Source: a candidate division CPR3 bacterium GWF2_35_18
GTDB lineage: Bacteria > Patescibacteriota > CPR3 > GWF2-35-18
Length of the DNA: 64,000 bases
Assembly: GCA_001771135.1 (NCBI GenBank)
Contig: MESW01000005.1
Location: 17,467-81,466 of the forward strand
Direction of reading: 5' to 3'
Shown here: piece after piece, positions 2,095-39,629 of the stretch
Layout: every line of letters begins with the position of its first letter
Numbering within the stretch: position 1 is the stretch's first letter
Notes under the pieces: generated by a model
Seen by the model: only the letters and a program-made list of their open reading frames with translations
Told to the model about the DNA's origin: nothing
Databases searched by the model: none
Translations under genes and position numbers: made by a program

Positions 2095-2415
2095 CTATTT
2101 ATCAACATTCTCGGCTTGCTTTTGATACAAAACTACTGCCTCTTCTAGAACCGTAATCATAAAACCATCGTTATTTTTTTTTAATATTTCAAATTCTTTC
2201 TCTGTATAAAATAGTGGGTTAATAATTAAAACCGATTTATTAAGTTTAAGAATGCTTTTAATCCGTTCGATAAATCGTAATTTTGTTTCTCCGATTACTA
2301 AAATATCCATAGCTGCATGTTTACGAGACCTTCCTCGAGCATAAGAACCGAATAAATAAATTCTTTCTGGATCAAATTCTTTGACAATCTTTGATACGAG
2401 GCTTTTCAATTTCAT
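2095..2415 (-). CDS. Minimal nucleotidyltransferase (MNT/MntA-like antitoxin). I prefer the start at the internal Met; the track's start at 2490 would overlap the HEPN gene by 55 nt.
   Basis: LFGSYARG...DILVIG is a GS-x(n)-D-x-D pol-beta nucleotidyltransferase motif. The protein is about 107 aa from M26. Confidence 0.6.
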   Translation of the reverse strand: MKLKSLVSKIVKEFDPERIYLFGSYARGRSRKHAAMDILVIGETKLRFIERIKSILKLNKSVLIINPLFYTEKEFEILKKNNDGFMITVLEEAVVLYQKQAENVDK

Positions 2416-2435
2416 CCGGATATTTTTGTTTTTAA

Positions 2436-2834
2436 TTAGTAGATCAAGGTCTGAATTCTCTGTAAGATCAACCTCGCTTCGCGTAGGCATTCTTGCGCCT
2501 CCTTGTCATTAATAAATTCATGTGGAGTCATAATTTCCTGAGGGATTGCTAAAGGATAACGTGAAATAAAAGTAATCGCTTCTAAATTGTCATGCTCAAG
2601 ATACACCTTTCTAAATTCTGGATTTGCCTTTTGGCACATTTTATACAAAATAGAAACACGATGAACTCGAGGAATTTTGTTACCGCAAAAAACGAGATAT
2701 GCTTTTAAAGATTTTTCGGCTGTTTGTTGTGCCTGAAAACAAGCCCACTCATAATAACCGTTGCTAAACGATAGATTAGCGGCTTGAAAATCAAAATCAG
2801 CTTGTTTGAGCCAGATAAGCTGTGTCTCAATCAT
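2436..2834 (-). CDS. HEPN domain protein (HepT-like toxin partner of the MNT).
   Basis: AQQTAEKSLKAYL is a HEPN helix, and there is an R-x(n)-H-like motif (PRVHRV). It sits immediately upstream of the MNT gene in the same operon. Confidence 0.6.
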   Translation of the reverse strand: MIETQLIWLKQADFDFQAANLSFSNGYYEWACFQAQQTAEKSLKAYLVFCGNKIPRVHRVSILYKMCQKANPEFRKVYLEHDNLEAITFISRYPLAIPQEIMTPHEFINDKEAQECLREARLILQRIQTLIY

Positions 2835-2836
2835 AG

Positions 2837-3415
2837 TTAACGAAGAGAAAACTTCTCTCGATCTCCAAAAAGCACAATAATATCCTGTTTGAGAAATTTA
2901 GTTAAAAAAGGGGCTTTAGTTTGCTTCATGCTATTAAATTCTTCTTCGGAAAGCAGGGTGTAGTTGATCTCTTTTTTAACCTTTGTCTCATATTTTGAAA
3001 TTATCTCAGAAAGTAATTTTAAAGGAAGACTTCCAATAATTAATAAATCTACTTCTGAATGAGCTCTTTCTCGATTAGAATACCATTCACTAGCAACACC
3101 GATATATTTTACCTTTGATAAATCAACACTCTTTTTACTAAATTCTTCTCCGATTCCAAATTCTTTGATAAGCATTCGAAACATTTCTGGATAGAAAATA
3201 AAATTCTTCTTCAAAAAGTAGTAAACTCTGTTGCCTCTTTTTTCACGTCCCAGAAGCTTAACTTTGTAAAGTCGCGAAAGCTCTCGACGGACTGCATTGA
3301 TCTCTTCGCTAATCTGACGAGTAATATCACGCACATGATACCTCTCAACATTCGACAAGAAAAAAAGTTTTAAAATTTTGACTCGAACTTTGGAGGTAAA
3401 AAAAGTTTCTAACAT
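2837..3415 (-). CDS. Winged-HTH domain fused to a degenerate nucleotidyltransferase-like domain.
   Basis: The N-terminal wHTH signature is VKILKLF...VRDITRQISEEINAVRRELSRLYKVKLLGREKRGNRVYYFL. The C-terminal HSEVDLLIIGSL segment resembles an NTase core. It ends 2 nt before the HEPN gene. Confidence 0.45.
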   Translation of the reverse strand: MLETFFTSKVRVKILKLFFLSNVERYHVRDITRQISEEINAVRRELSRLYKVKLLGREKRGNRVYYFLKKNFIFYPEMFRMLIKEFGIGEEFSKKSVDLSKVKYIGVASEWYSNRERAHSEVDLLIIGSLPLKLLSEIISKYETKVKKEINYTLLSEEEFNSMKQTKAPFLTKFLKQDIIVLFGDREKFSLR

Positions 3416-3547
3416 AGACCCTCCTTTAAATTAAATTTAGAGTGAACTTGTACAGAATGTTTTTTTATATTTAATTTCTAAGTTCACTTGATAAAGATTC
3501 TCAATTAGAGAACCTAACATTCTGTTTTAAATCGTTATATATATAAA

Positions 3548-4897
3548 TTAATACACAATCTCCGAACCAATCGGTAAAACGGAAATCCAAGTACGTCCTC
3601 GGTTAAATTCTATCTCTGTACCAGACTCATCGTAATAAATAGTTCGCGATACTCTCTCTGACTTTTTCCATTTTACTTTAATTACCTCTCCATCTCTAAA
3701 AATATAAGCATCTCCTTCTCCAATCAAATCGTAAATAAGACGTGATTTTGAATCCGTGTCTACGGTAAAACTAGCAGGATTAAGTTGCAAAATAATATTC
3801 TTGGCTGATATCTGATCACCAGTCTCGGCATCTGTATGTTTGACTGTATTCTGTTCTCTAAAATAGAGATTTTGCTCGGCGTCAAAAGTCCATTTAACAC
3901 TATAATCTGTTACTCCCCAAGTCTGCCAATTAAATGAAATCTCATCTATCTCTCCCAAAGTTGCCTGCTCTGAATCTTCTTTAAACTGCCATCTTGTAAG
4001 ATCTACAATTCCTGTCCAACCTTTGTCTTCTGCTTTTTGCCAAAGATCTTTCACCGAAGCATAAGCATTATGAGGAGCAACTTTAGTAGAAACTCTCCAA
4101 AAATTATTAGGAACAAAAAGTCCTAGAGATTTAATGTTATAATTGTAAATATAACCTAAAGCATCGGTATCAGGGTTATCTGTATCTGCATAACCGATAT
4201 GCATCACAAGTCCATCTCGAAGCTCGGCGATAAAATCAAGAAAATATTTTCGCAGTGAACGCACTGGACCCACTTTATCCGGAGCATTCTCAAGATAAAT
4301 CGCTTCAAAACGCGAAATTCCTCCTTCAGCTAAAGCTTCCCAAACAAGATCCGCATCATTAAGTCCAGATTGGGGACGGGCATCAACGTGATTCTCAATA
4401 ATCACTCCCATTGGTCTTCTTTCTACAATTTCATCATACTTTGTTTTGGTAATCAGAGTTCCGGTTAATGGGGATTCATGATCTTTTGATTCGTTTTTAT
4501 CTGTCGCGCTTTTAGTTGCTTCTGACTGATTTACAACCGGATTATCATTTTCCCACTTCCCCAGACCTAGAGCCTTAAATAAAAAGATACTTCCAAAGAT
4601 AAATATCCCCAAAAGAACCACCAATAAAACAGAATAAATAATCTTCTGAGTTTTATTTAAAGAACGAAACCATGTAACAATTTTTGATGGCTTCTTTCTA
4701 GTATCCGAAATTCCTGTCTCTTCTTTAATTTCTTTTCCTTCCACATCAAGTTTGATAATCTTTTCTTCACCTGTTTTTTTTGATGTTGATAAGTCTTTAT
4801 TCAATTCTGGAGAGATGGATTCAGTATCAATAACCTCTTTTTTTATTTCAGAAGTTTTTTCAGCTTTTAAATCACCTTTTTTATTTTTTTGGGGCAT
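3548..4897 (-). CDS. Membrane-anchored protein resembling the DUF3048 (YerB-like) family.
   Basis: It has a single TM after a charged N-terminal tail. The motif RPMGVIIENHVDARPQSGLNDADLVWEALAEGGISRFEAIY resembles the DUF3048 core. Confidence 0.45.
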   Translation of the reverse strand: MPQKNKKGDLKAEKTSEIKKEVIDTESISPELNKDLSTSKKTGEEKIIKLDVEGKEIKEETGISDTRKKPSKIVTWFRSLNKTQKIIYSVLLVVLLGIFIFGSIFLFKALGLGKWENDNPVVNQSEATKSATDKNESKDHESPLTGTLITKTKYDEIVERRPMGVIIENHVDARPQSGLNDADLVWEALAEGGISRFEAIYLENAPDKVGPVRSLRKYFLDFIAELRDGLVMHIGYADTDNPDTDALGYIYNYNIKSLGLFVPNNFWRVSTKVAPHNAYASVKDLWQKAEDKGWTGIVDLTRWQFKEDSEQATLGEIDEISFNWQTWGVTDYSVKWTFDAEQNLYFREQNTVKHTDAETGDQISAKNIILQLNPASFTVDTDSKSRLIYDLIGEGDAYIFRDGEVIKVKWKKSERVSRTIYYDESGTEIEFNRGRTWISVLPIGSEIVY

Positions 4898-5772: not shown

Positions 5773-6081
5773 ATGAGTAAAAAGAAAAGGAAAAATATTG
5801 ATAGTGTTGCTCTAAGACGTGAAATTGAAGCTCTAAAAGCTCAACTTAAAGAGCATGGAGTCGAACCAACTCCTATAAAAAGTGAAGCGAAAGAAACTTC
5901 CAGCTTTGATTATCGAAAAATCAGTAAAACTTCTACCCGAGCTCAAATTCGCGAACAACCAATTGATCTTCAAAAACTTGGCAAAGCAAGTTACCTTAAA
6001 AAGGATATTCTCAGAACTACGTTAATCTCTGTTTTTATTATCTCCAGCGTGATCATAATAAAAATTCTCAAACTTTTCTAA
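5773..6081 (+). CDS. Hypothetical tail-anchored protein with a basic coiled-coil N-terminus and a C-terminal TM. It may be leaderless.
   Basis: This is one of only two plus-strand ORFs. A TATAAT box at 5761-5766 lies 6 nt before the ATG and there is no SD. Confidence 0.3.
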   Translation: MSKKKRKNIDSVALRREIEALKAQLKEHGVEPTPIKSEAKETSSFDYRKISKTSTRAQIREQPIDLQKLGKASYLKKDILRTTLISVFIISSVIIIKILKLF

Positions 6082-7613
6082 AACTCTATCTTCGGTCGAT
6101 ACTGAAGCGCTTCGGCTACATGACTCAGCTGAATCTCTTCTGACTCGCTTAAATCTGTAATTGTTCGAGCTACTTTGAGGGTTCGATAGTAGCTACGCGC
6201 GGAAAGACGCAACTGGGAAACAGCCTGACGCATCAAATTCAGAACATCATTTGATAATTGGCAAAACTTTTCAATTTCTTTAATTCGCATTTCTGCATTA
6301 GAAAATATCCCAGAATCGGAAAATCTTTTAACCTGTTTATCCCGTGCATTTTGTACTCTTTTTGCTACCGTCTTCGAATCTTCCACTTTTATTCCTTCTT
6401 CAGTATTAGTTAATTTTTCCACCTTGACTGCCGGAACTTCTAGAATCAGATCAATTCTGTCCAGAATTGGACCGGAGATCTTTTTTTGATAACGAGAAAT
6501 AGCTGTAGGTAAACAGGTACATTCCCGAGTTTCATCTCCCAAAAATCCACAAGGGCAAGGATTACTAGCTGCAATCAGCATAAATTTGGCTGGAAAAGCA
6601 ACCGTTCCTTTGGCGCGTGAGACTTGAATAATTCCATCTTCAAGAGGCTGACGCATAGCTTCAAGCACCTGACGCGGAAACTCCGGAAATTCATCCAAAA
6701 ATAACACTCCACGATGAGCTAAAGAAATCTCTCCTGGTTTTGGATTGACACCACCACCCACAAGACCTACATGACTAGTTGTGTGATGTGGAGCACGAAA
6801 AGGTCGTATTTTTACAATTGCCTGCTTTTGTGACAACAAGCCCGAGACTGAATAAACTTTGGTCACTTCTAAAGCCTCTTCAAGAGTCAATCTGGGTAAT
6901 ATCGTCGGAATGGTTCGCGCCAGTAAAGTTTTACCAGCACCAGGAGGTCCAGAAAAAAAGATGTTGTGGCCACCAGCTGCCGCAATCTCAATCGCTCTCT
7001 TTGCCTGTTCCTGCCCTCTAATACGAGACAAATCATAATCACTCATAACGTCATTACTAAAAAGATTTTCTAAATTACCCTGTTGATATGACGGAATTAA
7101 CTTATCTCCTAACAAATGATAATAAAGATCAAGAAGGCAATTAACCGGCACAATTTCAATCCCCGGAATTATCGCCGCCTCAGGACCGTTAACCGCTGGA
7201 ACAAACACTTTTTTAAAACCATGATTTTTAGCAAGCTGCACTTGGGGTAAAACCCCATTGGTGTGACGTAATGATCCATCTAATGATAATTCTCCCAGGA
7301 AAAAAGAATCGGAAAAATCTCCTTTTAATTGCTCTGAAGCAATAAGAAGTCCCACGGCAATTGGAAGATCATAAGCTGGACCTTCCTTCGGCAGATCGGC
7401 AGGAGCAAGATTTACCGTAATTCGAGAAACAGGCATCTTCGCTCCAGAATTTTTAATCGCCGAACGCACCCGTTCTTTTGATTCTTCAACGGCTTTATCA
7501 GGCAGTCCGACAATATTAAATTTTGGAAGGTTTCCGCGAGAAACGTCGACTTCAACATCTACAGAAATGGATTCTAAACCGAAAGTCGCTCCGGAAGAGA
7601 TTTTTGATAACAT
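6078..7613 (-). CDS. comM: YifB/ComM family Mg-chelatase-like AAA+ ATPase.
   Basis: An N-terminal Lon-like domain is followed by Walker A (GPPGAGKT) and a C-terminal ChlI-like region. Length is 511 aa. Confidence 0.9.
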   Translation of the reverse strand: MLSKISSGATFGLESISVDVEVDVSRGNLPKFNIVGLPDKAVEESKERVRSAIKNSGAKMPVSRITVNLAPADLPKEGPAYDLPIAVGLLIASEQLKGDFSDSFFLGELSLDGSLRHTNGVLPQVQLAKNHGFKKVFVPAVNGPEAAIIPGIEIVPVNCLLDLYYHLLGDKLIPSYQQGNLENLFSNDVMSDYDLSRIRGQEQAKRAIEIAAAGGHNIFFSGPPGAGKTLLARTIPTILPRLTLEEALEVTKVYSVSGLLSQKQAIVKIRPFRAPHHTTSHVGLVGGGVNPKPGEISLAHRGVLFLDEFPEFPRQVLEAMRQPLEDGIIQVSRAKGTVAFPAKFMLIAASNPCPCGFLGDETRECTCLPTAISRYQKKISGPILDRIDLILEVPAVKVEKLTNTEEGIKVEDSKTVAKRVQNARDKQVKRFSDSGIFSNAEMRIKEIEKFCQLSNDVLNLMRQAVSQLRLSARSYYRTLKVARTITDLSESEEIQLSHVAEALQYRPKIEF

Positions 7614-7702
7614 GGTACAACGAGGTTAAATTACAAAACCTATTATACCTAAAATATGTTCGATTGAAAAGGATTCAAGAAATAAAAATGAATTTCTAAT
7701 GA

Positions 7703-8149
7703 TTAGCTTTTGTGTTCACGATGAGCATGTGCTCCAGTTTCGGTTGGATTAACCTCTTGTGGTTTAGCACTTCTGTCAAAGATGGTTCCGGCGGCGGAAA
7801 TCACCGCTTCTTGTTTTTCAGATTCTACGGAAACACCAAATGGAGAAGATTGCGTAACCACAACTTTTTCCTGCATTCCAGATACAGTAGTTGTTTCAAC
7901 AACTTGACTTGAAGCTTCAGAAACGGTCACACCCCATTCGCCTTCAGAATTAAGTTCTGTGGTGTAGCTTTCTACCTGTCTACCTCCAGATTCAGCTTCT
8001 GCCATTAATTGATCAATTTCCATTTGAAAAGAAGTTCTTTGATCTCCAGCCAAAGATTCTGGATTCCAAGGACTACCATCTGTAACTCCAAGATAAGTTT
8101 CTCCTTGTCCTGGTACTCCTGATTTTTCAAAATTTCCTCTTTGAGTCAT
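7703..8149 (-). CDS. Hypothetical acidic protein, low-complexity and predicted disordered (G/S/T/E/Q/V-rich), in a locally GC-elevated segment.
   Basis: A GGGAGG SD lies 9 nt upstream of the ATG. It has no TM or signal peptide. Composition differs from the neighbouring genes. Confidence 0.4.
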   Translation of the reverse strand: MTQRGNFEKSGVPGQGETYLGVTDGSPWNPESLAGDQRTSFQMEIDQLMAEAESGGRQVESYTTELNSEGEWGVTVSEASSQVVETTTVSGMQEKVVVTQSSPFGVSVESEKQEAVISAAGTIFDRSAKPQEVNPTETGAHAHREHKS

Positions 8150-8162
8150 ATATATAGCCTCC

Positions 8163-8456
8163 CTATGCTTTTATTCTCTCATCATTGGTGACGATTCCGC
8201 CACCCCAACTCATAAATTTACGTAGTTTATCATCTCTTAATTGTCCTGATCTTTCAAAACGCGCCTCATATTCCTTTTTGGCTGGAGTATATTCAGAAAC
8301 AAAACGGTATCTTTTCCAACAGGTTTGACACTCTCTTTTATTTGCAAAACCATATGCAAAACAACTGTCATCCTCAATTTGTTTGAAGTGACAGCTGGTT
8401 TTTATTTTGAAACTTATCTCTATTGATTTATTTTTCTCTTCTTTCTCTTTCATCAC
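8163..8456 (-). CDS. Hypothetical small protein with four Cys in a zinc-ribbon-like arrangement (C-x9-C-x10-C-x2-C).
   Basis: An AAGGAG SD sits in the loop of a 5-bp hairpin (CAGGG/CCCTG) just upstream. It is co-oriented with the 7703..8149 gene and 13 nt upstream of it. Confidence 0.45.
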   Translation of the reverse strand: MMKEKEEKNKSIEISFKIKTSCHFKQIEDDSCFAYGFANKRECQTCWKRYRFVSEYTPAKKEYEARFERSGQLRDDKLRKFMSWGGGIVTNDERIKA

Positions 8457-29432: not shown

Positions 29433-30302
29433 CTAGACAATCCGACCGCCCTCTTTGATCATCCAGGCATAAAAGTCCCCCGGGCGGGAATGAGCAAAAC
29501 CGATATCAAAGCGTAAGAAAATATCTTTATAATCAGTATTGATAAATACAGTTCGGAATTTATCCTCAAGACCATCGAAACTGACGCCATAGGGATCGGG
29601 AAGAAGGTTGAAAACTTCTGCCCGCGTTAACGTGGTCTCGATGTCAAACTGCATCACTGGCACTTTGTTGTAATCGGAATAAACAAATTCGAACTTCGGA
29701 TTGCGATTTACTGTGGTATTCGTGATCCCTTTTTCATTTTCGGCTTTGGTACAGGGAATGATAAACGGCCACTCCTCACCCTCCGGGTAACGGACAAGGT
29801 AACAACTTTCCGCAATCATTTCCCGAAAGGAAAGATATTCTTTTTCCGGGATATCCACGCTCGAAAAGTTCATTCCGGTATGATTCACCTCTTTGCATTT
29901 TCCTTTGAATCGCGAAAGTAACTGTGCTAGCGTCAACTGATAATATTTCTTACGATTAGCGGTAACGACGCAATATTCGCCCGCTGCATCTTTTTTGATT
30001 TCAAATTTTTTATTTGAATCAGAAGCCGATTGTAATTTCGGTACATTGAAACCAAAGCGCAAACCACCAGCTTGATAGAGTTTTTGTGGTATTTCCGGAT
30101 CCTGAAATGAAACCGATACCGCTTCTTCGTCAAAAAATATTTCCGTGGTAGGAAGAAGTTTCCGACTACCGAGAGTTATAGTCTTGTCATTAAGCATTTT
30201 CACGTTATGGCAAGATGATAATAACGAAATGAAATCAGCAGCAAAGCTCTGATTCCAAGGAGCAGTAGATTTTCTGAGTTTGAGTTGGATGTTATTAATC
30301 AT
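29433..30302 (-). CDS. Hypothetical 289-aa cytoplasmic protein, the last gene of the hsd-linked gene string.
   Basis: ORF. It lies 29 nt downstream of the receiver-like gene with the same orientation. Confidence 0.45.
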   Translation of the reverse strand: MINNIQLKLRKSTAPWNQSFAADFISLLSSCHNVKMLNDKTITLGSRKLLPTTEIFFDEEAVSVSFQDPEIPQKLYQAGGLRFGFNVPKLQSASDSNKKFEIKKDAAGEYCVVTANRKKYYQLTLAQLLSRFKGKCKEVNHTGMNFSSVDIPEKEYLSFREMIAESCYLVRYPEGEEWPFIIPCTKAENEKGITNTTVNRNPKFEFVYSDYNKVPVMQFDIETTLTRAEVFNLLPDPYGVSFDGLEDKFRTVFINTDYKDIFLRFDIGFAHSRPGDFYAWMIKEGGRIV

Positions 30303-30331
30303 AAAATTATACTTCTAAAATATATTATTTT

Positions 30332-30721
30332 TTAAATCTGATTTGCTTGCTGATCATCAAAAAAGCGTTTTATTTCGTTTGATAATTGTTCCAATGTCAA
30401 AGATGATTTTATAAGAAATTTGATCGCTCCAAGTTTTAAACACTCATTAACTATTTGTTCATTACCGAGATTTGAACAGACCATGATAGGAGTATTTTTT
30501 GAAATGTCATTCGATTTAATTCTTTTTATTACTTGCATTCCGTCAAATTTTGGAAGCATTATGCAAGTGATAATTAAATCGTACTTATTAGTAAAAGCTA
30601 AGTTAATGCCTTTTTCACCATCCAGAGCAAAATCAACAGTATAACCTGCTCCTTCGAATGACTCTTTCAAAATTGAAACTAAATAATCACTATCTTCAAT
30701 CCAAAGTATTTTTTTAGGCAT
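30332..30721 (-). CDS. Stand-alone CheY-like receiver (REC) domain with Cys in place of the phospho-acceptor Asp (atypical or pseudo-receiver).
   Basis: Aligning to CheY, the acidic pocket is WIEDSD (CheY VVDDFS), the conserved Lys is in FLIKS, and YDLIITCIMLPKFDG aligns with YGFVISDWNMPNMDG. This places Cys at the D57 position. Thr87 is also replaced (MVCSN). It starts 6 nt after the hsdR stop. Confidence 0.6.
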   Translation of the reverse strand: MPKKILWIEDSDYLVSILKESFEGAGYTVDFALDGEKGINLAFTNKYDLIITCIMLPKFDGMQVIKRIKSNDISKNTPIMVCSNLGNEQIVNECLKLGAIKFLIKSSLTLEQLSNEIKRFFDDQQANQI

Positions 30722-30726
30722 AAAAA

Positions 30727-33165
30727 TTATTTATATAAATATTCAGAATTTATTTTTGCATACAGATTTTTCTGAAACGCAAAGAAAATTGATCTAATAT
30801 CTTCAACATCACCAAGAGACTCTTCTGCATTTGCAATTGCTTGATATTTTAGATTCAACAATACTGGTAGTTTTTCTTCGTCCAATTCTTCAACACCCTT
30901 TTCTTCATATTTAGATAAAACAAAATCCAAGAATTCTTTTTGTTTTGTATCTAAACCTTTGTAAATTTTATCTTTTGATTGTTCAACTCGCTGCACCCTC
31001 GTAATCGGTTGAGTTAAAAATGATATGTATGAAAGTACGTCGAATAAATCACTCTGTTCTGCATCAATCATTTTTTGTAATGTTTCTAGTTCATCCCTAC
31101 CATAACCAATTTCCGCTATTTTATCTAAAAATGCCTTACGAGTTGTCGGGTTGGACCAAATCTTTCGGAGCTCTTCTTCACTTTGGAAAAACTCCGGCAT
31201 GGTACCAAACATCTTATCCATAAACTCCTGAATTGAAATCGGTTTTCCATCGGCACTCCAAAATGAAGTTGCAATCATGTGTTTTATCTCTCGTTCTTTC
31301 CCATCCCGTAATTTAATTTTCAATATTTTTTTCGGTGTATTTCCACATTGACATGGAAATTTCCCGCATACAGGACATAATGCATGTTCTTTAATACATA
31401 CGCATGGTTCTTGCCCACAAACCGGACAAATTCTAGGAGGCTTTACATCACAAATACAAGGATCCTTTCCACACTTTAAACAAATTTCAGCCATTGATTC
31501 ACCATCCCATTCCGGATCAGAAAAATGCTTGTGAGCATCAACAAAGTCATATATCGTAAAATATTCTTTTCCGTCAAAAAGTCTCGTTCCTCGACCAATA
31601 ATCTGTTTGAACTCAATCATGGAATTGATTGGTCTCATCAAAACAATATTTCGGATATTACGTGCGTCCACTCCGGTAGAAAGTTTTTGTGAAGTCGTGA
31701 GAATTGTGGGTATTGTTTTTTCATTATCTTGAAATTCACGTAAAAACTGATCTCCTCGAGCTCCATCATTGGCAGTAACGCGGACACAATAATTTGGATC
31801 TTTACTATCTTTCATTTGATTAATTAAGTCTCGAACCGCCAGCGCATGATCTTGGGTGGCGCAGAATATAATCGTCTTTTCGTTTTGGTTTATTTCATCT
31901 AATATTACACGAACTCTTTTGGCCTCACGCTCTTTGATAACAATAATTCGATTGAAATCAGGTTCTTCATAAATTTTGCCTTCTTCTACTTCTCCTTCAA
32001 TTATTTGATCGTCAGAAGTATACACATAATCATCAATTGTGGTTTTGATTCGTTTAATTTTGAAAGGTGTCAGAAATCCATCGTTTACACCTTCTTTGAG
32101 AGAATAAATATATACTGGTTCTCCAAAATATTTATAAGTATCAATATTATCTTTTCTTTTTGGAGTAGCCGTGAGACCAAGCTGAACTGCTGGAGAAAAA
32201 TATTCCATAATCCCTCGCCAATTACCTTCATCATTTGCCCCGCCACGATGACATTCGTCAATAATAATAAAATCAAAGAAGTCAGGAGGATAATCGCCAA
32301 AATATGGCGAACCATTTGGACCGCTCACAAAAGTTTGGAAAATCGTAAAATAAACACTCCCACTCATTGGAACTCCACCTTTTTTACGAATATCAAGGGT
32401 ATTGATACGAACTAGCGCATCAGAAGGAAATGCGGAAAAGTTATTGTATGCTTGATCAGCTAAAATATTTCTATCAGCCAAAAATAATATTCTTGGTCTA
32501 CGAGCTCCATCTCGTTTCAGATTCCAACGAGTTTGAAAAAGTTTCCAAGCTACTTGAAAAGCCACGGCAGTTTTTCCGGTTCCAGTTGCCATGGTCAAAA
32601 GAATTCTAGGTTTTTCTTCTGATACTGCATTCAAAATATTATTGATGGCAATTTCTTGATAATACCGTTTTCCGTATTCGCCTTCATTAGGTATGCTGGC
32701 AAATTTATCTTTCCATTCATTCCAACCCGCTTTGCCAGCAGGTAGGTCTAAAAATGTTTTATTCCATAATTCTAAAGGAGTCGGAAAACTGGCAATATTT
32801 CCTTCTTTTCCAGTTTCCATGGAGATTTCATAAAGCTCTTTACCATTAGTGGAATAGGTATAGTTAATCTTCATTTTTTGCGCATACGCTTTGGCTTGAG
32901 CCACACCTTCAGTCGCTTCAAAGTTTTCAGCTTTAGCTTCTATGACTGCAATTTTGCGATTTTTATATACCAAAATATAATCAGCAATCTCTGATTTACT
33001 TCGAACTCCCCCGGACTGAATTCTTCCTTCGGTAATACGATATTCACGCAGGATTTTTGATCCTTCGACTTCACCCCAACCACTAGCTTTTAATTTTGGA
33101 TCAATATATTCGGCTCTTGTTTCTGATTCGTTCATATTATTTCCTAAATAGTTTAATATAATCAT
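30727..33165 (-). CDS. hsdR: Type I restriction enzyme R subunit (EcoEI/type IB-like, 812 aa), with an unusual Cys-rich triple CPxCGxxPCxC insertion.
   Basis: The N-terminal HSDR_N PD-(D/E)xK nuclease has D...IEAK. The SF2 helicase motifs are I (TMATGTGKT), II (DECHR) and VI (QIIGRGTR). The C-terminal region is EcoEI_R_C-like. Confidence 0.85.
31348..31482 (-). other. Cys-rich zinc-ribbon-like insertion inside HsdR (residues about 562-606). It holds three tandem C-P/K-x-C-G-x-x-P-C-x-C units.
   Basis: [22 protein letters not shown] and [11 protein letters not shown] sit between the helicase C-terminal motif VI and the EcoEI_R_C-like tail. Confidence 0.5.
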
Positions 33166-34279
33166 CCATCACAAAAATACGGTTTCGGGAAAAACCTGTT
33201 TTTTCCTTTAGAATACCTAAGGTTACAAAATCCTGCACTAGGTTATTTGCAGCGACATACTGAATATCAAGAATTTTTTCCACGTTTTTAATACTTATCA
33301 CCGGTTCAGAAAACAAATTTATGAGGAGATCTCGTCCTCTCTTGGACTTTTTACCCAAGGTGGAAATCTTACCCTCAAAGATACTTCGAAGGGTAATAAT
33401 ATTCTCAAAGGTTCTTTTTGATTTTTTTGCGGTCTCGGTCACACCTTCCAAGAAAAATAAAATCCACTGCCCCAAATCATCACTTCTTCTTACCTTATCA
33501 AGAGAGTCATAATAAGATTGTCTATGTGTCTCAAAAAAATCAGATATGTACAGAACAGGATATTTCAAAAACTTTTTCTCAATAAGCTGAAGAGAAATAA
33601 CTAAACGACCAATACGCCCATTACCGTCTAAAAATGGATGAATAGTTTCGAATTGATAGTGTCCAATTGCTATTTTAATAAGGACAGGTATGTCGAGAGA
33701 ATTGTTATGCCAAAACTTTTCCCAATCAGATAGTAATTCCGGAAGATGCTGAATATGTGGGGGAACGAAATGGGCGGTATCTATAGATGCACCACCAATC
33801 CAATTTTGACTTGTGCGAACTTCTCCGGGGCGTTTAACTTCTCCCCGCACACCAGACAAAAGAATATGATGCACTTCTTTAACCAAACGCATGGAAACAG
33901 GTAACTGCTTCAAATTACTAATCGCTTGATTCATGGCCGTTATGTAATTCTGAACTTCTTTCCAATCATCTCTTTTTTCTGGATCAATTTCATCCTCTGA
34001 GAGAAGAGCTTCATCCATTCCCGTCTTTGTGCCTTCAATCTTTGACGAACTCACTGCCTCAGACATCACATGCATCTGGATAAAAAAATCTACATCCGGC
34101 ACGAGCGTCCCGTAAGCATTGAGCTCCCCCAAAAGTCGCGTAGCTTCTTCCAAAGAGACCAATATCTTTTTATTATCTATATCAAAGTCATGATTAACGA
34201 GTGTCGGTAAAAAATACTCATAATGATGAGCTGTGTTCGGTTCAAAAACTATATTTTTACCTGATGTATAATTCTTCAT
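33137..34279 (-). CDS. fic: Fic family protein (Fic/Doc adenylyltransferase fold), embedded between hsdS and hsdR.
   Basis: Canonical Fic motif [12 protein letters not shown]. It overlaps the hsdR start by 29 nt. Confidence 0.85.
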
Positions 34280-34394
34280 AAAAGTAATATAACATTCCTT
34301 ATTATTATTTGCAAGGCTAAAAGATAATATAAATAATCATACTATCTTTTGAATTCTGCCAAAAATCTATAATTCTACACCAAAAACTCTTTCG

Positions 34395-34445
34395 TCATTG
34401 TCATTCCCGTCCCCGCCTTCGCGAGGATAAACTCCAGCGGGAATC
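34395..34445. repeat. GC-rich structured patch with nested inverted repeats (ATTCCCG...CGGGAAT and CCCGC...GCGGG) in the hsdS-fic intergenic region.
   Basis: gtcattcccgtccccgccttcgcgaggataaactccagcgggaatcc is compositionally unlike its AT-rich surroundings. Confidence 0.35.
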
Positions 34446-34450
34446 CAGAT

Positions 34451-35632
34451 TTATAGTTCTCCATTAAAAGCTTTTTTGAGAACTGATTTTTTCAGTTCTT
34501 CTAGATCTGCTATTTTTTGTTTATATATTGCTTCCAGCTTTTTGGTTTCAGCAGAAAGCGCATCGAGTTTGGCGACGATGGATTTTTGTTCGGGAATAGA
34601 TGGAATATCAATTTTTTGAATTTTAAAAATTGCATGCGTAATGTCTGGTTGAGCCACTCTTCCAGCTAGATCTAAAATTTTGGATTTAAAAATTGGATTT
34701 TGTAACCAAATAAACAAATAATCCTTGGTTAATACTGATTTCGGTACAATCTTAAATGAGTTGTTATGCAAAATACCTTTCCTACCCCTAAAAACTAACC
34801 CTAATGAGCCCGTTCTTGTATAAATAATGTCTGATTCGTTTACGAGAGCATTTTTAGGGTAATTATTAGGATCAATATATTGTTCTTCTGTATTATTTTT
34901 TAAGTCCTTAATCCTTAATAAGGGTAAATTACTTTTTTTAACTAATGCATGTTTAGTTTTAGCATTTATAGCTATTCCTTGGTATAAATCACAAACATCG
35001 CCCAAACTTTTTTCTTCCCAATCCTTCCCCGGATTTGCAAAGACACTCTGCAAATACGATTCAAAAAGCTCTTTTGTATTTTGGAGATTTTTTCCCGCAT
35101 TTTCTTTCGCTTTTTCTATCTTTTCAAAAACCTCATCCAGGATTTTGACGATGCGGTGTTGTTCGGAGAGGGATGGGAGAGGGATTTTTATTTGTTTTAA
35201 AATCTTAACTGAAGCAACGTTTTTAATTGCCACCCCTTTTGAAATTTTTTTTAGACTATCTTGAAAGCCTTTGCTTTGCATCCATAACTTCAAAAATTCA
35301 TTTGATATTTGTTTTGATGGGGTTAATTTCAGCAATGCTTGATTAATTATTCCTTTTTTAATGTTTTTTGGAGCTATTGCTATTTTTCCCATTGTTCCCG
35401 AACAGCTCATTATTAAATCACCTGATTTTAATTCAAATCTTTCCATTTCTTTAAATTTTTTTTCATCAATAAAGTATCGGCTATTATCAAATTGATTGTA
35501 AATTGCATGCTGTTGCTCATAAACCGCATAACCGTCTTTCTTGAAAATAGATTTCGTAAGACTTCCCCCGAAAGGTCCTCTTACAAAATCACAAACCTCA
35601 CCGAGTTTTTTTGTTTGCCAGTTAGTTTTCAT
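34451..35632 (-). CDS. hsdS: Type I restriction-modification specificity subunit with two target-recognition domains.
   Basis: Duplicated TRD architecture with conserved central and C-terminal spacer repeats (LPSLSEQHRIVKILDEVF... and IPSIPEQKSIVAKLDAL...). Confidence 0.85.
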   Translation of the reverse strand: MKTNWQTKKLGEVCDFVRGPFGGSLTKSIFKKDGYAVYEQQHAIYNQFDNSRYFIDEKKFKEMERFELKSGDLIMSCSGTMGKIAIAPKNIKKGIINQALLKLTPSKQISNEFLKLWMQSKGFQDSLKKISKGVAIKNVASVKILKQIKIPLPSLSEQHRIVKILDEVFEKIEKAKENAGKNLQNTKELFESYLQSVFANPGKDWEEKSLGDVCDLYQGIAINAKTKHALVKKSNLPLLRIKDLKNNTEEQYIDPNNYPKNALVNESDIIYTRTGSLGLVFRGRKGILHNNSFKIVPKSVLTKDYLFIWLQNPIFKSKILDLAGRVAQPDITHAIFKIQKIDIPSIPEQKSIVAKLDALSAETKKLEAIYKQKIADLEELKKSVLKKAFNGEL

Positions 35633-37617
35633 ACTTTTCTTGTTAAATCAATAATCATTGGGACATTTGATTTTACTGCCTTTCCTGCAACTATTGCGTT
35701 GTATTGTTTTAAATTTGGCAACGTCAACACAAGATCTTTTCCAACATAATTACCTAAAAAATTAAAACTTGTTTCATCAAATGCTTGGAAACAGATTACT
35801 GTATTACATTGAGTCAAAATTGTTTTTGAGACATTTGCCGTTCTCTGTGCAATAACAAGCAAACCAATTCCATATTTTCTTCCCTGTAGAGCTATTTGCC
35901 CCATTTTATTTACAATTGCCTTGCTATCGAAATTATTAACTCCTAAAAAGGATGCTTCTGGTACTATTGTATGAGCTTCTTCTAATACAAGAGATATTTT
36001 TGTGGGGGTTTTTTCATCATATTTCTTTTTTGAAAAATTAAATATTGCTTCAAAAAGTTTCTCGGTTGCATTTATAACTTCAACTGTATTACTCATTACT
36101 GGCAATTCAACGATACCAATTTTATCTGAACCATTTAGAAAATTATCAATATTGTCTTTATTTAAAACTGTAACAATAACTTTAATATTTTCTAATTCCG
36201 TTTTCCATTCGCCGGTAAAATCAACACAGATAATTTTAGTATCTTTTGTAAGTTCTTTTATAATTTCGCGGGCTAGAAAAGATTTTCCCGATCCAGTTAC
36301 CCCTAAAAGTGCCATATGATGACTAACAGCATGATCTAGGTTAATAACAGAGGGTAGTGTCGTATTTGGGATTATCCCGAGTTTGTATTCAGGATATTTA
36401 AAACTTTTCACCTTTATATCAGATGTATTTGCTTTAAAAACTGGAGTATTGATAGACGGAACCCAACCAAATTTTTGAAATGATAATTTATCATTTTGCC
36501 ATTCTCCAAGCTGAATTGCTTCACCCTCAATAAAGCCAGTTTCGTTTTGGGCTTCTAACTTCTCTTTTTCAGTACTACCTGCAATTACTTGATAAAATAA
36601 TCTCTTATCGCCGACCTTTAATTCAAGCAAATCACCTTCCTGTAAGTCATCACTCTTTTTTGAATACTCAAATTTAATTTTTCCAATAGTAGAGTTTTCA
36701 ATAACTATGCCCACAAGACTATCAACATTTAATTCTTTATTTGTTGTATCAACCTCCTCAGAGTCAATTATTTTATAAACCATGTTTTTTTCTAGCTTTC
36801 CACCTTTTTTTTCAATTTCTCCTAATTGAAGAATTTTTGCCCATTTTCCCTGATTTAGTAAATATGTATCAAAAACTATTCCTGTAATAATAAAATCTAT
36901 TGTATCTTGCATGGAATACATAAACTTAACCACATCAAATTTTTTTATACTCTTTCTGTCCTTAAGAAGCTTTACAAGAAAAATCTTTTTTGACTGAACG
37001 CCAAATATTTCCCCAATCTGATCCCCTACGTCCTTTTTAATAGAAATGGCGAAACTTCCGTGAATATTTTTCGGATTTATTGATAAAATACAAAACCACA
37101 AAATGAATAAAATCAGAGTGTAGAGATTCTGAATTGAATGGTACGTTAGTAAAAAATAAATAAAGACAGAAGAATAAAGTACTCGCCCCTGCCCAATAAT
37201 AACCACAACATCTTTAAGTTTAGTTGCTACTTTATTTCCCCAATAATCTGGACTTTTATCCTTATCATCAAGAGAAAGTGCAATTATGGAGGCGGCGAGA
37301 AGTAGAATCAATATAACAATCGTTGTCCACCAAAACACTATATTCTCAAAAGAAGTTTTAATTGCGAGGAATACCAATAAAAGTGGAATTACGTTTGTGA
37401 TGACATTTTTCGGCGAGGTGTAATAGGGTTCAACGAATAAAATAGAAAACATAATCATAAAAATGCCTGAATAAAACCATAGATCTTTAGTTTCTGTGCT
37501 TGGTAAAAAAGTTCCAAAAGAAAAATATTGGACAATCACAAAAACAACAAAAAAAATGCCAAATATTATGAATCTATTTTTCGTTAAAAAACTAATATTT
37601 TTAAATAAATCTTTCAT
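35629..37617 (-). CDS. Membrane-anchored HerA/DUF87-like P-loop ATPase. It has about 6 N-terminal TMs and a HAS-barrel-like segment. The ATPase core has Walker A (GVTGSGKS) and Walker B (LVLEEAHT). It is embedded between hsdM and hsdS.
   Basis: HHMALLGVTGSGKSFLAREI and QGRKYGIGLLVIAQRTANVSKTILTQCNTVICFQAFDETSFNFLG match the HerA/DUF87 core. The first 200 aa are six hydrophobic helices. It overlaps both neighbours by 4 nt (ATGA), indicating translational coupling. Confidence 0.65.
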   Translation of the reverse strand: MKDLFKNISFLTKNRFIIFGIFFVVFVIVQYFSFGTFLPSTETKDLWFYSGIFMIMFSILFVEPYYTSPKNVITNVIPLLLVFLAIKTSFENIVFWWTTIVILILLLAASIIALSLDDKDKSPDYWGNKVATKLKDVVVIIGQGRVLYSSVFIYFLLTYHSIQNLYTLILFILWFCILSINPKNIHGSFAISIKKDVGDQIGEIFGVQSKKIFLVKLLKDRKSIKKFDVVKFMYSMQDTIDFIITGIVFDTYLLNQGKWAKILQLGEIEKKGGKLEKNMVYKIIDSEEVDTTNKELNVDSLVGIVIENSTIGKIKFEYSKKSDDLQEGDLLELKVGDKRLFYQVIAGSTEKEKLEAQNETGFIEGEAIQLGEWQNDKLSFQKFGWVPSINTPVFKANTSDIKVKSFKYPEYKLGIIPNTTLPSVINLDHAVSHHMALLGVTGSGKSFLAREIIKELTKDTKIICVDFTGEWKTELENIKVIVTVLNKDNIDNFLNGSDKIGIVELPVMSNTVEVINATEKLFEAIFNFSKKKYDEKTPTKISLVLEEAHTIVPEASFLGVNNFDSKAIVNKMGQIALQGRKYGIGLLVIAQRTANVSKTILTQCNTVICFQAFDETSFNFLGNYVGKDLVLTLPNLKQYNAIVAGKAVKSNVPMIIDLTRKV

Positions 37618-39065
37618 ATAAGTTTTTTAATATTACTTAAAATATTACCACTCTCCTCGTCCAGCTTCCTCATCTCTTTTAGTATATCCTTCGGTTCTCT
37701 CAAAACCACTTCATCATTTTTATTCGGATTTTTGACTGATAAATCAAATGTTTTTTGATCAATATTCTTCACATCCTCACTCCACGAATTTCCACTATCT
37801 GCCTTCGTCTTTTGCAATTCCACAAATTCCGCCAAATCGTTTTCATTTAAGGGATGACCTTTACCGAGATTACGAGCGAGATTGAGCTGGTAGAACCACA
37901 CTTTTTTCGTCGGCGCGCCTTTTTCGAAAAACAAGACCACAGTCTTTACCCCAGCTCCAGCAAAAACCCCACCAGGTAAATCAAGCACCGTGTGCAGATT
38001 ACAATTCTCTAGAAGGAGTTTGCGCAAAGAAACAGAGGCATTATCAGTATTGCTTAGAAAAGTATTCTTGATAACAATACCAGCCTTCCCGCCAGCTTTT
38101 AGAATTTTAATAAAATGTTGGAGAAAAAGAAAAGCCGTTTCGCCAGTCTTGATCGGGAAGTTTTGTTGGATTTCTCGTCCGATACCAGCACCAAAAGGTG
38201 GATTAGCAAGAACTACATCGTAACGATCTTTTTCTTGAATATCGTTAATATTTTCCGAAAGCGTATTCATATGTCTGATATTCGGCGCTTCAATACCGTG
38301 CAGGATCATATTCATGATGCCGATGATGTAAGCGAGAGATTTTATCTCTTTACCATAAAAAGTTTTATTTTGAAGTCTTTCCATCTCACCCGAAGAAAGC
38401 GTGGATTTATTCTGCATAAGATAATTATAAGATTCCACCAAAAATCCTGCGCTTCCACAAGCGCCATCATAAATAGTTTCACCAATCTTCGGTTTCACTA
38501 CCTTAACAATAGTTTTAATAAGTGGCCGTGGCGTGTAGTATTCACCACCGTTTCGTCCGGCGTTCCCCATATTCTTAATTTTCGCCTCATAGAGATGAGA
38601 AAGCTCGTGTTTCTCTTCGTACAAGCGAAAATGCATACCATCCACAATATTCAAAATCTTCCGTAAGGTATAACCGCTCACTATTTTATTTTTCAGCTCA
38701 TGAAAAATCTCACCAATTTTATACTCAATAGTGTTTGGTTCTTCTGCTCTGAATTTCTTAAGATAGGGAAAAAGTTTGTTGTTTACGAAATCTTTAAGAT
38801 CATCACCATCCAGCGCTTTGTTGTGATCCAATTTACCATCGCCATTTTTGGGACAAGCCCATGTGTTCCATCGGTATTCTGGAGATAAAATATATTCGTA
38901 TTTCTTACCAGCTAGAGCTGCTTCTGTCTTTTTGGTCTCCTCGAGATCATCCAGATATTTTAGAAATAGAATCCAGGAAGTTTGTTCAACATAATCAAGT
39001 TCCGTAGCACAACCAGAATCAGTACGAAGAATATCATCAATGTTTTTAAAGGATTGTTCAAACAT
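37614..39065 (-). CDS. hsdM: Type I restriction-modification N6-adenine DNA methyltransferase subunit.
   Basis: HsdM N-terminal domain, the YYTPRPLIKTIV motif, a SAM-binding DGACGSAGFL motif and the catalytic NPPFG. Confidence 0.9.
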   Translation of the reverse strand: MFEQSFKNIDDILRTDSGCATELDYVEQTSWILFLKYLDDLEETKKTEAALAGKKYEYILSPEYRWNTWACPKNGDGKLDHNKALDGDDLKDFVNNKLFPYLKKFRAEEPNTIEYKIGEIFHELKNKIVSGYTLRKILNIVDGMHFRLYEEKHELSHLYEAKIKNMGNAGRNGGEYYTPRPLIKTIVKVVKPKIGETIYDGACGSAGFLVESYNYLMQNKSTLSSGEMERLQNKTFYGKEIKSLAYIIGIMNMILHGIEAPNIRHMNTLSENINDIQEKDRYDVVLANPPFGAGIGREIQQNFPIKTGETAFLFLQHFIKILKAGGKAGIVIKNTFLSNTDNASVSLRKLLLENCNLHTVLDLPGGVFAGAGVKTVVLFFEKGAPTKKVWFYQLNLARNLGKGHPLNENDLAEFVELQKTKADSGNSWSEDVKNIDQKTFDLSVKNPNKNDEVVLREPKDILKEMRKLDEESGNILSNIKKLI

Positions 39066-39082
39066 AGTTTTTATTTGTTAAA

Positions 39083-39120
39083 TACTACTGTAGTATAAGT
39101 CTTTTTGATTATTCAGACAA
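39083..39120 (-). promoter_or_regulatory. Candidate sigma70-like promoter of the hsd operon with a perfect 15-bp palindrome over the -10 and TSS.
   Basis: On the minus strand, TTGTCT (-35) is followed by a 17-nt spacer and TATACT (-10). The palindrome ATACTAC-A-GTAGTAT (39083-39097) lies 18-32 nt upstream of the hsdM ATG. Confidence 0.45.
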
Positions 39121-39152: not shown

Positions 39153-39629
39153 TTACAATCCCCACTTCTTCATCTCATACCTTCCACTCTTCTCAAGCAA
39201 ACTAATCTCCTCTTTGATCACCTTAATATCTTCATCATTAAGTGGAATGAAGGGATCGTAGAAACCAGTGGCGCGGTCGGGGAGATAGACGGATTCCGGA
39301 AGAGGCTGATATTTCACGCCCAGAACCCGACCAAAAACATGCATATGTAAAACCGGCTTTTTATTTTGCTTCCACGCCCAATTTCCCATCTCCTGATAGT
39401 TAATCTTAAGAACCGGTATTCCCCGCCTATTCATGCCTTTATAGAGCGCTTCCCCCATCATCGAGTATAGACGTATATATTCAATCGCCTGACGCGGAGT
39501 CAACATCGTGCAGTCTTGGATAGACTCGTCAAGCGAATAAACGCGCAGATGCCCGCCTTCTTCACGGCTCACAAACGGTTTTGGGTGTGGATGCACTGTA
39601 AAATTTTCGGTTTTGTAGATTTCAATCAC
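39153..39629 (-). CDS. HIT-like (histidine triad superfamily) protein; divergent member.
   Basis: FTVHPHPKPFVSREEGGHLRV and LHMHVFGR form a partial HxHx motif. Confidence is low. Confidence 0.4.
   Translation of the reverse strand: MIEIYKTENFTVHPHPKPFVSREEGGHLRVYSLDESIQDCTMLTPRQAIEYIRLYSMMGEALYKGMNRRGIPVLKINYQEMGNWAWKQNKKPVLHMHVFGRVLGVKYQPLPESVYLPDRATGFYDPFIPLNDEDIKVIKEEISLLEKSGRYEMKKWGL

Follow-up and report, generated by a model that had tools for sequence, protein, structure and literature searches.

In archaeal HerA-NurA and in the anti-phage systems SIR2-HerA (Nezha) and DUF4297-HerA, the HerA ring receives its effector (NurA, Sir2 or DUF4297) at the barrel face. HerA/FtsK domains also occur inside restriction systems, for which DndH is a precedent (PMC10853773), and Hma is among the systems for which an embedding of genes in the operons of defence systems has been reported (Payne et al., 2024, bioRxiv 10.1101/2024.01.29.577857). 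Here we analyse a stretch of 64,000 nucleotides from the candidate division CPR3 bacterium GWF2_35_18 (contig MESW01000005.1, positions 17,467 to 81,466 of the forward strand), referred to below as the window. At positions 29433-39120 it carries a type I restriction-modification (R-M) operon with an embedded gene for a 662-amino-acid (aa) membrane-anchored HerA-clade ATPase, named here X, and a second embedded gene for a Fic protein. We consider it rather probable that we are dealing with a type IB hsd cassette that moves horizontally and offers two slots for cargo, occupied here by two independent passengers, X and the SoFic-like Fic protein, and that X is autonomous defence cargo is likewise rather probable.

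The operon and its junctions

All seven open reading frames (ORFs) listed earlier lie on the minus strand in the order hsdM, X, hsdS, fic, hsdR, receiver and a 289-aa ORF, exactly as an earlier note on this DNA had read them. The type I (IB) DNA methyltransferase subunit HsdM (37614-39065, 483 aa) matches the Pfam family N6_Mtase (2e-63) together with HsdM_N, and the PADLOC model MTase_I (9e-162). X follows at 35629-37617 as cargo of the slot between hsdM and hsdS, identified by DUF87, its sequence motifs and an AlphaFold2 (AF2) model. The specificity subunit HsdS (34451-35632, 393 aa) has two target-recognition domains and is matched in two stretches by Methylase_S (7.5e-42). The fic gene (33137-34279, 380 aa) is the cargo of the slot between hsdS and hsdR, and the longest ORF of hsdR, the type IB restriction subunit, spans 30727-33165. 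HsdR passes the NCBIfam EcoAI/FtnUII type IB equivalog NF046051 with 806 bits at a cutoff of 550; with N6_Mtase and HsdM_N in HsdM, two target-recognition domains in HsdS and all genes in one operon, the system belongs to family IB (EcoAI-like) of the type I R-M systems. Pfam, PADLOC, NCBIfam and the junctions bear out what the earlier note described, a type I R-M operon into which a HerA-like ATPase with a polytopic membrane part and a Fic protein are embedded.

The hsdM/X and X/hsdS junctions are both 4-nt ATGA overlaps, which can be read directly in the sequence and had been noticed before. The 29-nt overlap of fic and hsdR, noticed at the same time, is present in the longest ORF and is a feature of that ORF only, because HsdR homology begins only at Met11; from this likely true start at 33135, one base separates the fic stop from the hsdR start.

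Anatomy and fold of X

Three regions can be distinguished in X. Residues 1-185 (37063-37617) form a six-helix membrane domain, assigned from hydropathy, the positive-inside count and invariant columns, with the motifs WFYSG, EPYYTSPKNV, GQG.VLYS and NPK. Its six hydrophobic segments are flanked by 12 Lys/Arg residues inside and 1 outside, where the N-terminus, loops 2 and 4 and the linker after the sixth helix are counted as inside and the other three loops as outside; the topology is therefore N-in, C-in, which places the ATPase on the cytoplasmic side. Residues 200-400 (36418-37020) are rich in beta structure, resemble a HAS-barrel and include DDLQEGDLLE as an invariant motif, as judged by the AF2 secondary structure, the alignment with HerA and the invariant columns. 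The RecA-like ATPase core comprises residues 410-662 (35632-36390) and was delimited by sequence and invariant residues. Among 66 diverse relatives there is little or no variation in Walker A (G439-S446), in Walker B with the catalytic Glu (L543-T550) and in R580, the candidate Arg finger, and the motifs GVTGSGKS, LVLEEAHT, QGRKYGIGLLVIAQR and TQCNTVICF are present.

A first AF2 model, calculated with 20 close homologues, reached a pLDDT (local distance difference test, predicted) score of 65 and was replaced by one based on a 66-sequence alignment that includes distant relatives. This monomer model has a pLDDT of 90.5 and a predicted template modelling (pTM) score of 0.72, and shows helices to residue 178, a beta-rich part from 200 to 395 and the ATPase core from 410 to 660. 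In the fold comparison it scored highest with the HerA of S. solfataricus (31.6, 328 residues aligned, barrel included), followed by two anti-phage HerAs (25.7 and 25.1), the HerA of D. radiodurans (21.3), VirB4 (21.1), the DndH C-domain (20.6) and TdpA (20.1), with TcpA (18.1), TrwB (16.8) and FtsK (16.2) at the lower end. The DUF87 model of Pfam (PF01935, the HerA central domain) is matched with 53.6 bits at a cutoff of 23.2. X thus has several features of the HerA clade, namely a HAS-barrel followed by a RecA-like ATPase fold, DUF87, Walker A and B motifs and an Arg finger, and the architecture of about six N-terminal transmembrane segments, a HAS-barrel-like segment and a HerA-type core, proposed earlier from the letters alone, agrees with the hydropathy, the model and the motifs.

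That X might turn out to be a type IV coupling protein (VirD4/TraG/TrwB), which the earlier note had named as the finding that would overturn it, was rejected. The TrwB model of Pfam stays below its threshold (19.1 versus 20.5), the fold fits HerA far better, and, apart from the copy on a mobile element of Legionella, no linkage to a relaxase or a type IV secretion system (T4SS) was seen. Going by the predicted fold, X is a true HerA-clade protein of the FtsK-HerA superfamily and not a coupling protein. The family occurs in two lengths: a long form of ~700 aa has an insert of ~40 residues after the Walker A region (alignment columns 515-555; for example L020, L004 and L005, where numbers with L denote individual loci), and a short form of ~660 aa is found in the window. 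The window and L020 hold different forms at the same cassette position.

Cargo slots of the type IB cassette

The HsdM of the window has many relatives that are 86-90% identical to it and are spread across the candidate phyla radiation (CPR), WOR-1 and other lineages. Five loci from this set (L061-L065, HsdM ~88-90% identical) were compared with the window. All of them are the same type IB cassette, and in all five the hsdM-hsdS junction, which is normally kept intact, is filled with genes other than X. In L061 it holds RhuM and an OLD-like ABC-ATPase/TOPRIM protein, and the 4-nt overlaps recur; an ABC ATPase takes this place in both L062 and L065, a TPR protein with a 150-aa protein in L063, and a 959-aa protein with no Pfam match in L064. 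The second slot, between hsdS and hsdR, is empty in L061 and L065, contains two small ORFs in L062 (64 and 176 aa), two small ORFs (51 and 36 aa) followed by Fic in L063, and a 187-aa protein followed by Fic in L064, where the latter resembles that of the window (381 aa, Fic_N and Fic). Fic thus lies in the same slot as in the window in two of the five sibling cassettes. As the contents of both junctions vary among the siblings, hsdM-hsdS and hsdS-hsdR are cargo slots of this lineage, and X and Fic are interchangeable passengers in them, X alternating with cargo of known defence types. The slots fit the embedding pattern mentioned above (Payne et al., 2024), and the idea that the arrangement of X between the methylase and specificity genes is special to X did not survive the comparison with the nearest siblings, which hold unrelated cargo there. 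The use of the hsdM-hsdS junction as a cargo slot in the type IB lineage makes these cassettes useful for finding further defence genes. The 959-aa protein of L064 and the TPR/150-aa pair of L063 are further candidates of this kind.

The complete M-X-S-R order (hsdM, X, hsdS, hsdR) of type IB, with the same 4-nt overlaps, was found in two other genomes, both without Fic. One belongs to the Omnitrophota (L020), with HsdM 76% and HsdR 71% identical to those of the window, and the other to the Spirochaetota (L043). In L043, X (2184-4189) and hsdR (6041-8358) are each interrupted, so that both appear as a pair of ORFs, and the remains of an IS200-like element lie between hsdS and hsdR; this locus is either a decaying copy or affected by assembly errors.

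Genomic neighbourhoods of X

The distribution of X is patchy, with 50 loci among 185,579 species genomes. R-M genes lie within four ORFs of X in 26 of the ~50 loci, a raw count taken without a formal background control, for which the share of R-M genes among all genes, a few per cent at most, may serve as a yardstick. Fourteen of these loci are type I and the rest belong to types II, IIG, III and IV; some defence gene is near X in ~31 of the ~50. Where a neighbour lies on the same strand, the distance to X is in most cases between -25 and +26 nt, and X is therefore usually co-transcribed with these neighbours.

In 11 further loci X is part of type I operons of other families, in varied positions, which include the orders S-X-R (L013, L021, L053, L055), S-X-RhuM-R (L019), M-S-X (L026, L029) and R-(fused MS)-X (L007, L048). 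Within the type I operon of L013 that carries X there is also a further defence candidate, a PDC-M11A gene (6921-8453). Elsewhere X is found directly behind, or within a few genes of, a type III Mod/Res system (L010), MmeI (L030), AlwI systems (L008, L052), a DpnII system (L006), C5 methylases (L009, L012, L044), GmrSD (L016, L035), a RAMA/HSDR_N nuclease accompanied by a KAP NTPase (L031), HEPN proteins (L004, L051), and Avs4 upstream with PDC-M49A downstream (L022, 678-4385 and 6855-8873). Copies that stand alone lie beside Thoeris on an integrative and conjugative element (ICE) of Legionella (L001) and near Shedu and Mrr (L005). The closest homologues of the window X (74-78% identical) are located behind a DpnII system of type II (L006), a fused M-S type I system (L007) and the type IV enzyme GmrSD (L035), the contexts are intermingled in the tree of X, and in this tree the window X does not group as sister with its counterpart from L020.

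R-M genes aside, no neighbour family of X is conserved in the ~50 loci, so that a dedicated effector partner of the kind of NurA, Sir2 or DUF4297 is lacking. The only recurrent neighbour outside R-M is a DUF2779 protein of ~500 aa that immediately adjoins X in three unrelated genomes (L010, L016, L017). DUF2779 is probably nuclease-like, in which case its pairing with X would recall HerA-NurA, and the protein may be a nuclease partner of X in some loci. The link of X to restriction and defence, proposed in the earlier note, is thus upheld by the neighbourhoods, whereas the tie to hsd genes in particular is not. The most probable reading is that X works as a defence module of its own, made up of one gene and co-transcribed with whichever restriction system precedes it.

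Conservation and distribution of the family

When 5.8 billion proteins were searched with X, 941 matches were obtained. The 120 with the best scores cover the full length at 61-78% identity; their sources are CPR groups, Omnitrophota, Phycisphaerae, Bacteroidia and Legionella pneumophila, and their annotations go no further than DUF87, ATP-binding or hypothetical protein. Full-length homologues with 50-78% identity are present in more than 10 phyla, and the mean column identity of 20 of the best 120 is 68%, with long invariant stretches also in the membrane domain. Across 43 species-level genomes the mean pairwise identity is 50% for the membrane domain, 65% for the barrel and 66% for the ATPase, and the membrane domain is constant in length. 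When the membrane domain alone was used as a query, 265 clusters (50% identity) were obtained from 1.84 billion representatives; DUF87 follows at the same position in all eight of the full-length relatives checked, and no other fusion partner was seen in them. Since the membrane domain is paired with DUF87 in each of these, the architecture of X is fixed. No relatives were found among the phages of INPHARED and IMG/VR, and plasmids contained only distant DUF87 relatives, from Bradyrhizobium, with 38% identity over residues 301-656.

Proposed mechanism and alternative explanations

In the mechanism we propose, six copies of X would form a HerA ring, which 36 helices would hold against the inner membrane from the cytoplasmic side. 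The ring would engage invading or restricted linear DNA and hydrolyse ATP, and hydrolysis would act on the membrane domain, which is predicted to sit where the NurA, Sir2 and DUF4297 effectors dock on other HerA rings. The membrane domain might then open or perturb the membrane, resulting in a response of the abortive-infection type. It is this position at the barrel face that leads us to favour a DNA-sensing ring driving a fused membrane effector, although the specific membrane-effector mechanism is put forward tentatively and with less than even confidence.

Several points weigh against a role of X in defence as outlined here. An identity of 50-78% across phyla, membrane domain included, is unusually high for a defence gene, and such conservation could reflect another conserved cellular role. 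The copies in L025 and L050 have housekeeping or unrelated neighbours, and it is from the neighbourhood alone that we infer the defence role. A role as a DNA conduit fits the same anatomy.

The alternative that survives best, which we nevertheless regard as rather doubtful, is that X is a membrane DNA translocase following the logic of FtsK, SpoIIIE or coupling proteins, which, in concert with restriction enzymes, captures, holds or pumps invading or restricted linear DNA at the inner membrane or across it, so that the 36 helices would be a conduit and not a toxic pore. The conserved polar motifs and constant length of the membrane domain suggest more than an anchor or a toxin, the gene is co-transcribed with DNA-cutting systems of every type, DUF2779 proteins adjoin it in three loci, and the HerA/FtsK domain of DndH shows that such a domain can be part of a restriction system. 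However, X is also found without a nearby nuclease, no conserved partner gene emerged from the ~50 loci, and a pore is beyond what a monomer model can show. We also know of no defence system that expels or sequesters DNA through a membrane. In its boldest form, which seems unlikely to us, X would be a membrane-embedded HerA motor and represent a new class of restriction-coupled immunity that seizes entering or freshly cut linear DNA at the inner membrane, blocks, exports or sequesters it, and so boosts the co-transcribed enzyme of types I-IV; if this were true, it would be a DNA-pumping defence without a described precedent.

The earlier note had instead suggested a composite system in which X uses the Hsd complex as sensor. 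X would then be, like PrrC, a built-in accessory subunit belonging to the type I system, and would be triggered by inhibition or engagement of the R-M enzyme. The ATGA coupling on both sides of X, the M-X-S-R cassettes in Omnitrophota and Spirochaetota, and the 14 type I operons among the ~50 loci speak for this. Yet homologues 74-78% identical to the window X follow DpnII, GmrSD and a fused M-S system, others accompany types II, IIG, III and IV systems or stand alone, and even within type I operons the position changes (M-X-S, S-X-R, M-S-X, R-MS-X). In addition, the sibling slots between hsdM and hsdS hold unrelated genes with the same 4-nt overlaps, and the X proteins of the window and of L020 are not sisters. 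The Hsd-sensor model is largely refuted by this distribution, and we judge it improbable. As a whole, the earlier interpretation is partly supported, and the observation on which it was built is confirmed.

Equally improbable, and contradicted by fold and context where a coupling-protein or mobile-element role is concerned, is that X has no defence role and hitch-hikes in variable regions while serving the cell or a mobile element in another way, be it in the uptake or transfer of DNA, in secretion or in membrane homeostasis: its very high conservation across phyla, its presence on the Legionella ICE, a weak P-loop similarity to TrwB and the few non-defence neighbourhoods (L025, L050) agree with this, but that ICE has its own coupling protein and TraC, the fold score is far better for HerA than for coupling proteins, the TrwB match is sub-threshold, no relaxase or T4SS linkage was seen at the other loci, and the neighbours are mostly defence genes.

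Of these readings, X as autonomous defence cargo is the one that we favour. If X protects, it constitutes a widespread single-gene defence family of undescribed architecture, in which a predicted HerA ring is fused to a polytopic membrane domain, and which ranges over CPR, Bacteroidota, Ignavibacteria, Elusimicrobia, Legionella and others. This raises the question of whether a DNA motor docked on the membrane is of benefit to restriction enzymes or whether R-M operons are expression platforms for cargo.

Accompanying genes and flanks of the island

The Fic protein of the window contains Fic_N and Fic and has kept both the catalytic HxFx(D/E)GNGRxxR motif and the inhibitory SSKIEG motif. It matches the PADLOC model of SoFic, a Fic defence that consists of a single gene, over its full length (1e-118) and shares the catalytic and inhibitory motifs with SoFic; it differs in scoring below the NCBIfam equivalog cutoff (203 versus 550 bits) and in being nested between hsdS and hsdR. 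The 171-nt spacer between hsdS and fic (34280-34450, minus strand) forms the boundary of the second cargo slot. It contains a GC-rich inverted repeat of 46 nt at 34401-34446 on the minus strand (GGATTCCCG...CGGGAATGA), in a genome with ~35% GC, and promoter-like hexamers at 34362-34286 (minus strand). No further copies of this hairpin were found elsewhere in the window, which speaks against a repeat element; it could serve as a terminator or have been left behind when cargo was inserted.

The receiver gene (30332-30721, minus strand) starts 5 nt past the end of hsdR and encodes a stand-alone protein of 129 aa (Pfam Response_reg, 7.9e-20). In its motif DLIITCIMLP a Cys occupies the position of the phospho-acceptor Asp at the end of beta-3, in agreement with the Cys substitution reported before. 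The 289-aa ORF (29433-30302, minus strand), taken from the ORF list, has no known domain and belongs to a small family with 15 matches, found only in Patescibacteria. In one related contig the gene lies in a housekeeping region near yecM, as it does in the window, and in two other contigs (L059, L060) it is near a serine recombinase gene, with neighbours mostly without a Pfam match. Neither the receiver gene nor the 289-aa gene is present in the sibling M-X-S-R cassettes L020 and L043, so that their earlier inclusion as members of the system is not supported; the receiver gene is at most a possible part of the island, and the 289-aa ORF is a core-genome gene of Patescibacteria outside it.

Upstream of the island lie rpoA-rplQ-rplM-rpsI and a strong terminator, and downstream the core genes for DUF2177, a pyrimidine-dimer glycosylase and YecM. 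With ribosomal and core genes on both flanks, the island is chromosomal; no integrase is in view around it in the window. Between the rpsI terminator and hsdM there is an ORF of 158 aa (39153-39629, minus strand), whose HMHVF stretch is reminiscent of a histidine-triad motif and which has no family match in Pfam, PADLOC or NCBIfam.

Comparison with known systems

No defence family in PADLOC (2023) or NCBIfam (2026) specifically matches X, in line with the earlier note, whose author knew of no described system of this kind, and no description of the family was found in the open literature. The text of Payne et al. contains none of the terms HerA, DUF87, ‘membrane’ and ‘transmembrane’ (bioRxiv 10.1101/2024.01.29.577857), and X has no match among the PDC/HEC candidate models of PADLOC 2.0. 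Within the literature and models searched, X is a previously undescribed, very conserved family. CmdB of Streptomyces, which is located in the membrane, was considered and rejected, as it is VirB4-like and not comparable to X.

With PrrC (EcoprrI), RloC and the ‘guilt by embedding’ candidates (bioRxiv 10.1101/2024.01.29.577857), X has in common its place inside an hsd operon, together with which it is transcribed. It differs from PrrC and RloC in being a HerA-clade and not an ABC ATPase, in having no nuclease domain and in being membrane-integral; the combination of ABC ATPase and anticodon nuclease is absent from X, which matches neither the PrrC nor the RloC model of PADLOC. DndH/DptH of DndFGH and MAD8 of MADS (methylation-associated defence system, an operon of eight genes that include MAD2, MAD5 and MAD8) are soluble parts of fixed multi-gene systems, whereas X is a membrane protein that stands by itself and whose neighbours vary. 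The operon of the window is not a MADS system, since HsdM reaches 84.8 bits with MAD2 (cutoff 720) and HsdS 78.9 bits with MAD5 (cutoff 400). The resemblance of X to mad8 is confined to the ATPase core, and the MADS preprint does not say what domain mad8 has. FtsK/SpoIIIE and the coupling proteins TrwB, VirD4 and TcpA share with X the order of N-terminal membrane helices followed by an ATPase of the additional strand catalytic E (ASCE) type, which in X is predicted to be hexameric, membership of the FtsK-HerA superfamily and, for X putatively, a membrane-docked ring.

The anti-phage HerA systems and archaeal HerA-NurA are close known counterparts of X. The PADLOC HerA models align just to the C-terminal part of X, and the NCBIfam HerA_antiphage equivalogs NF042943 and NF042944 give 64.5 and 65.7 bits at cutoffs of 800 and 850. 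In contrast to these systems, X has no separate effector gene, and a six-helix membrane domain is fused to it where the effector would dock.

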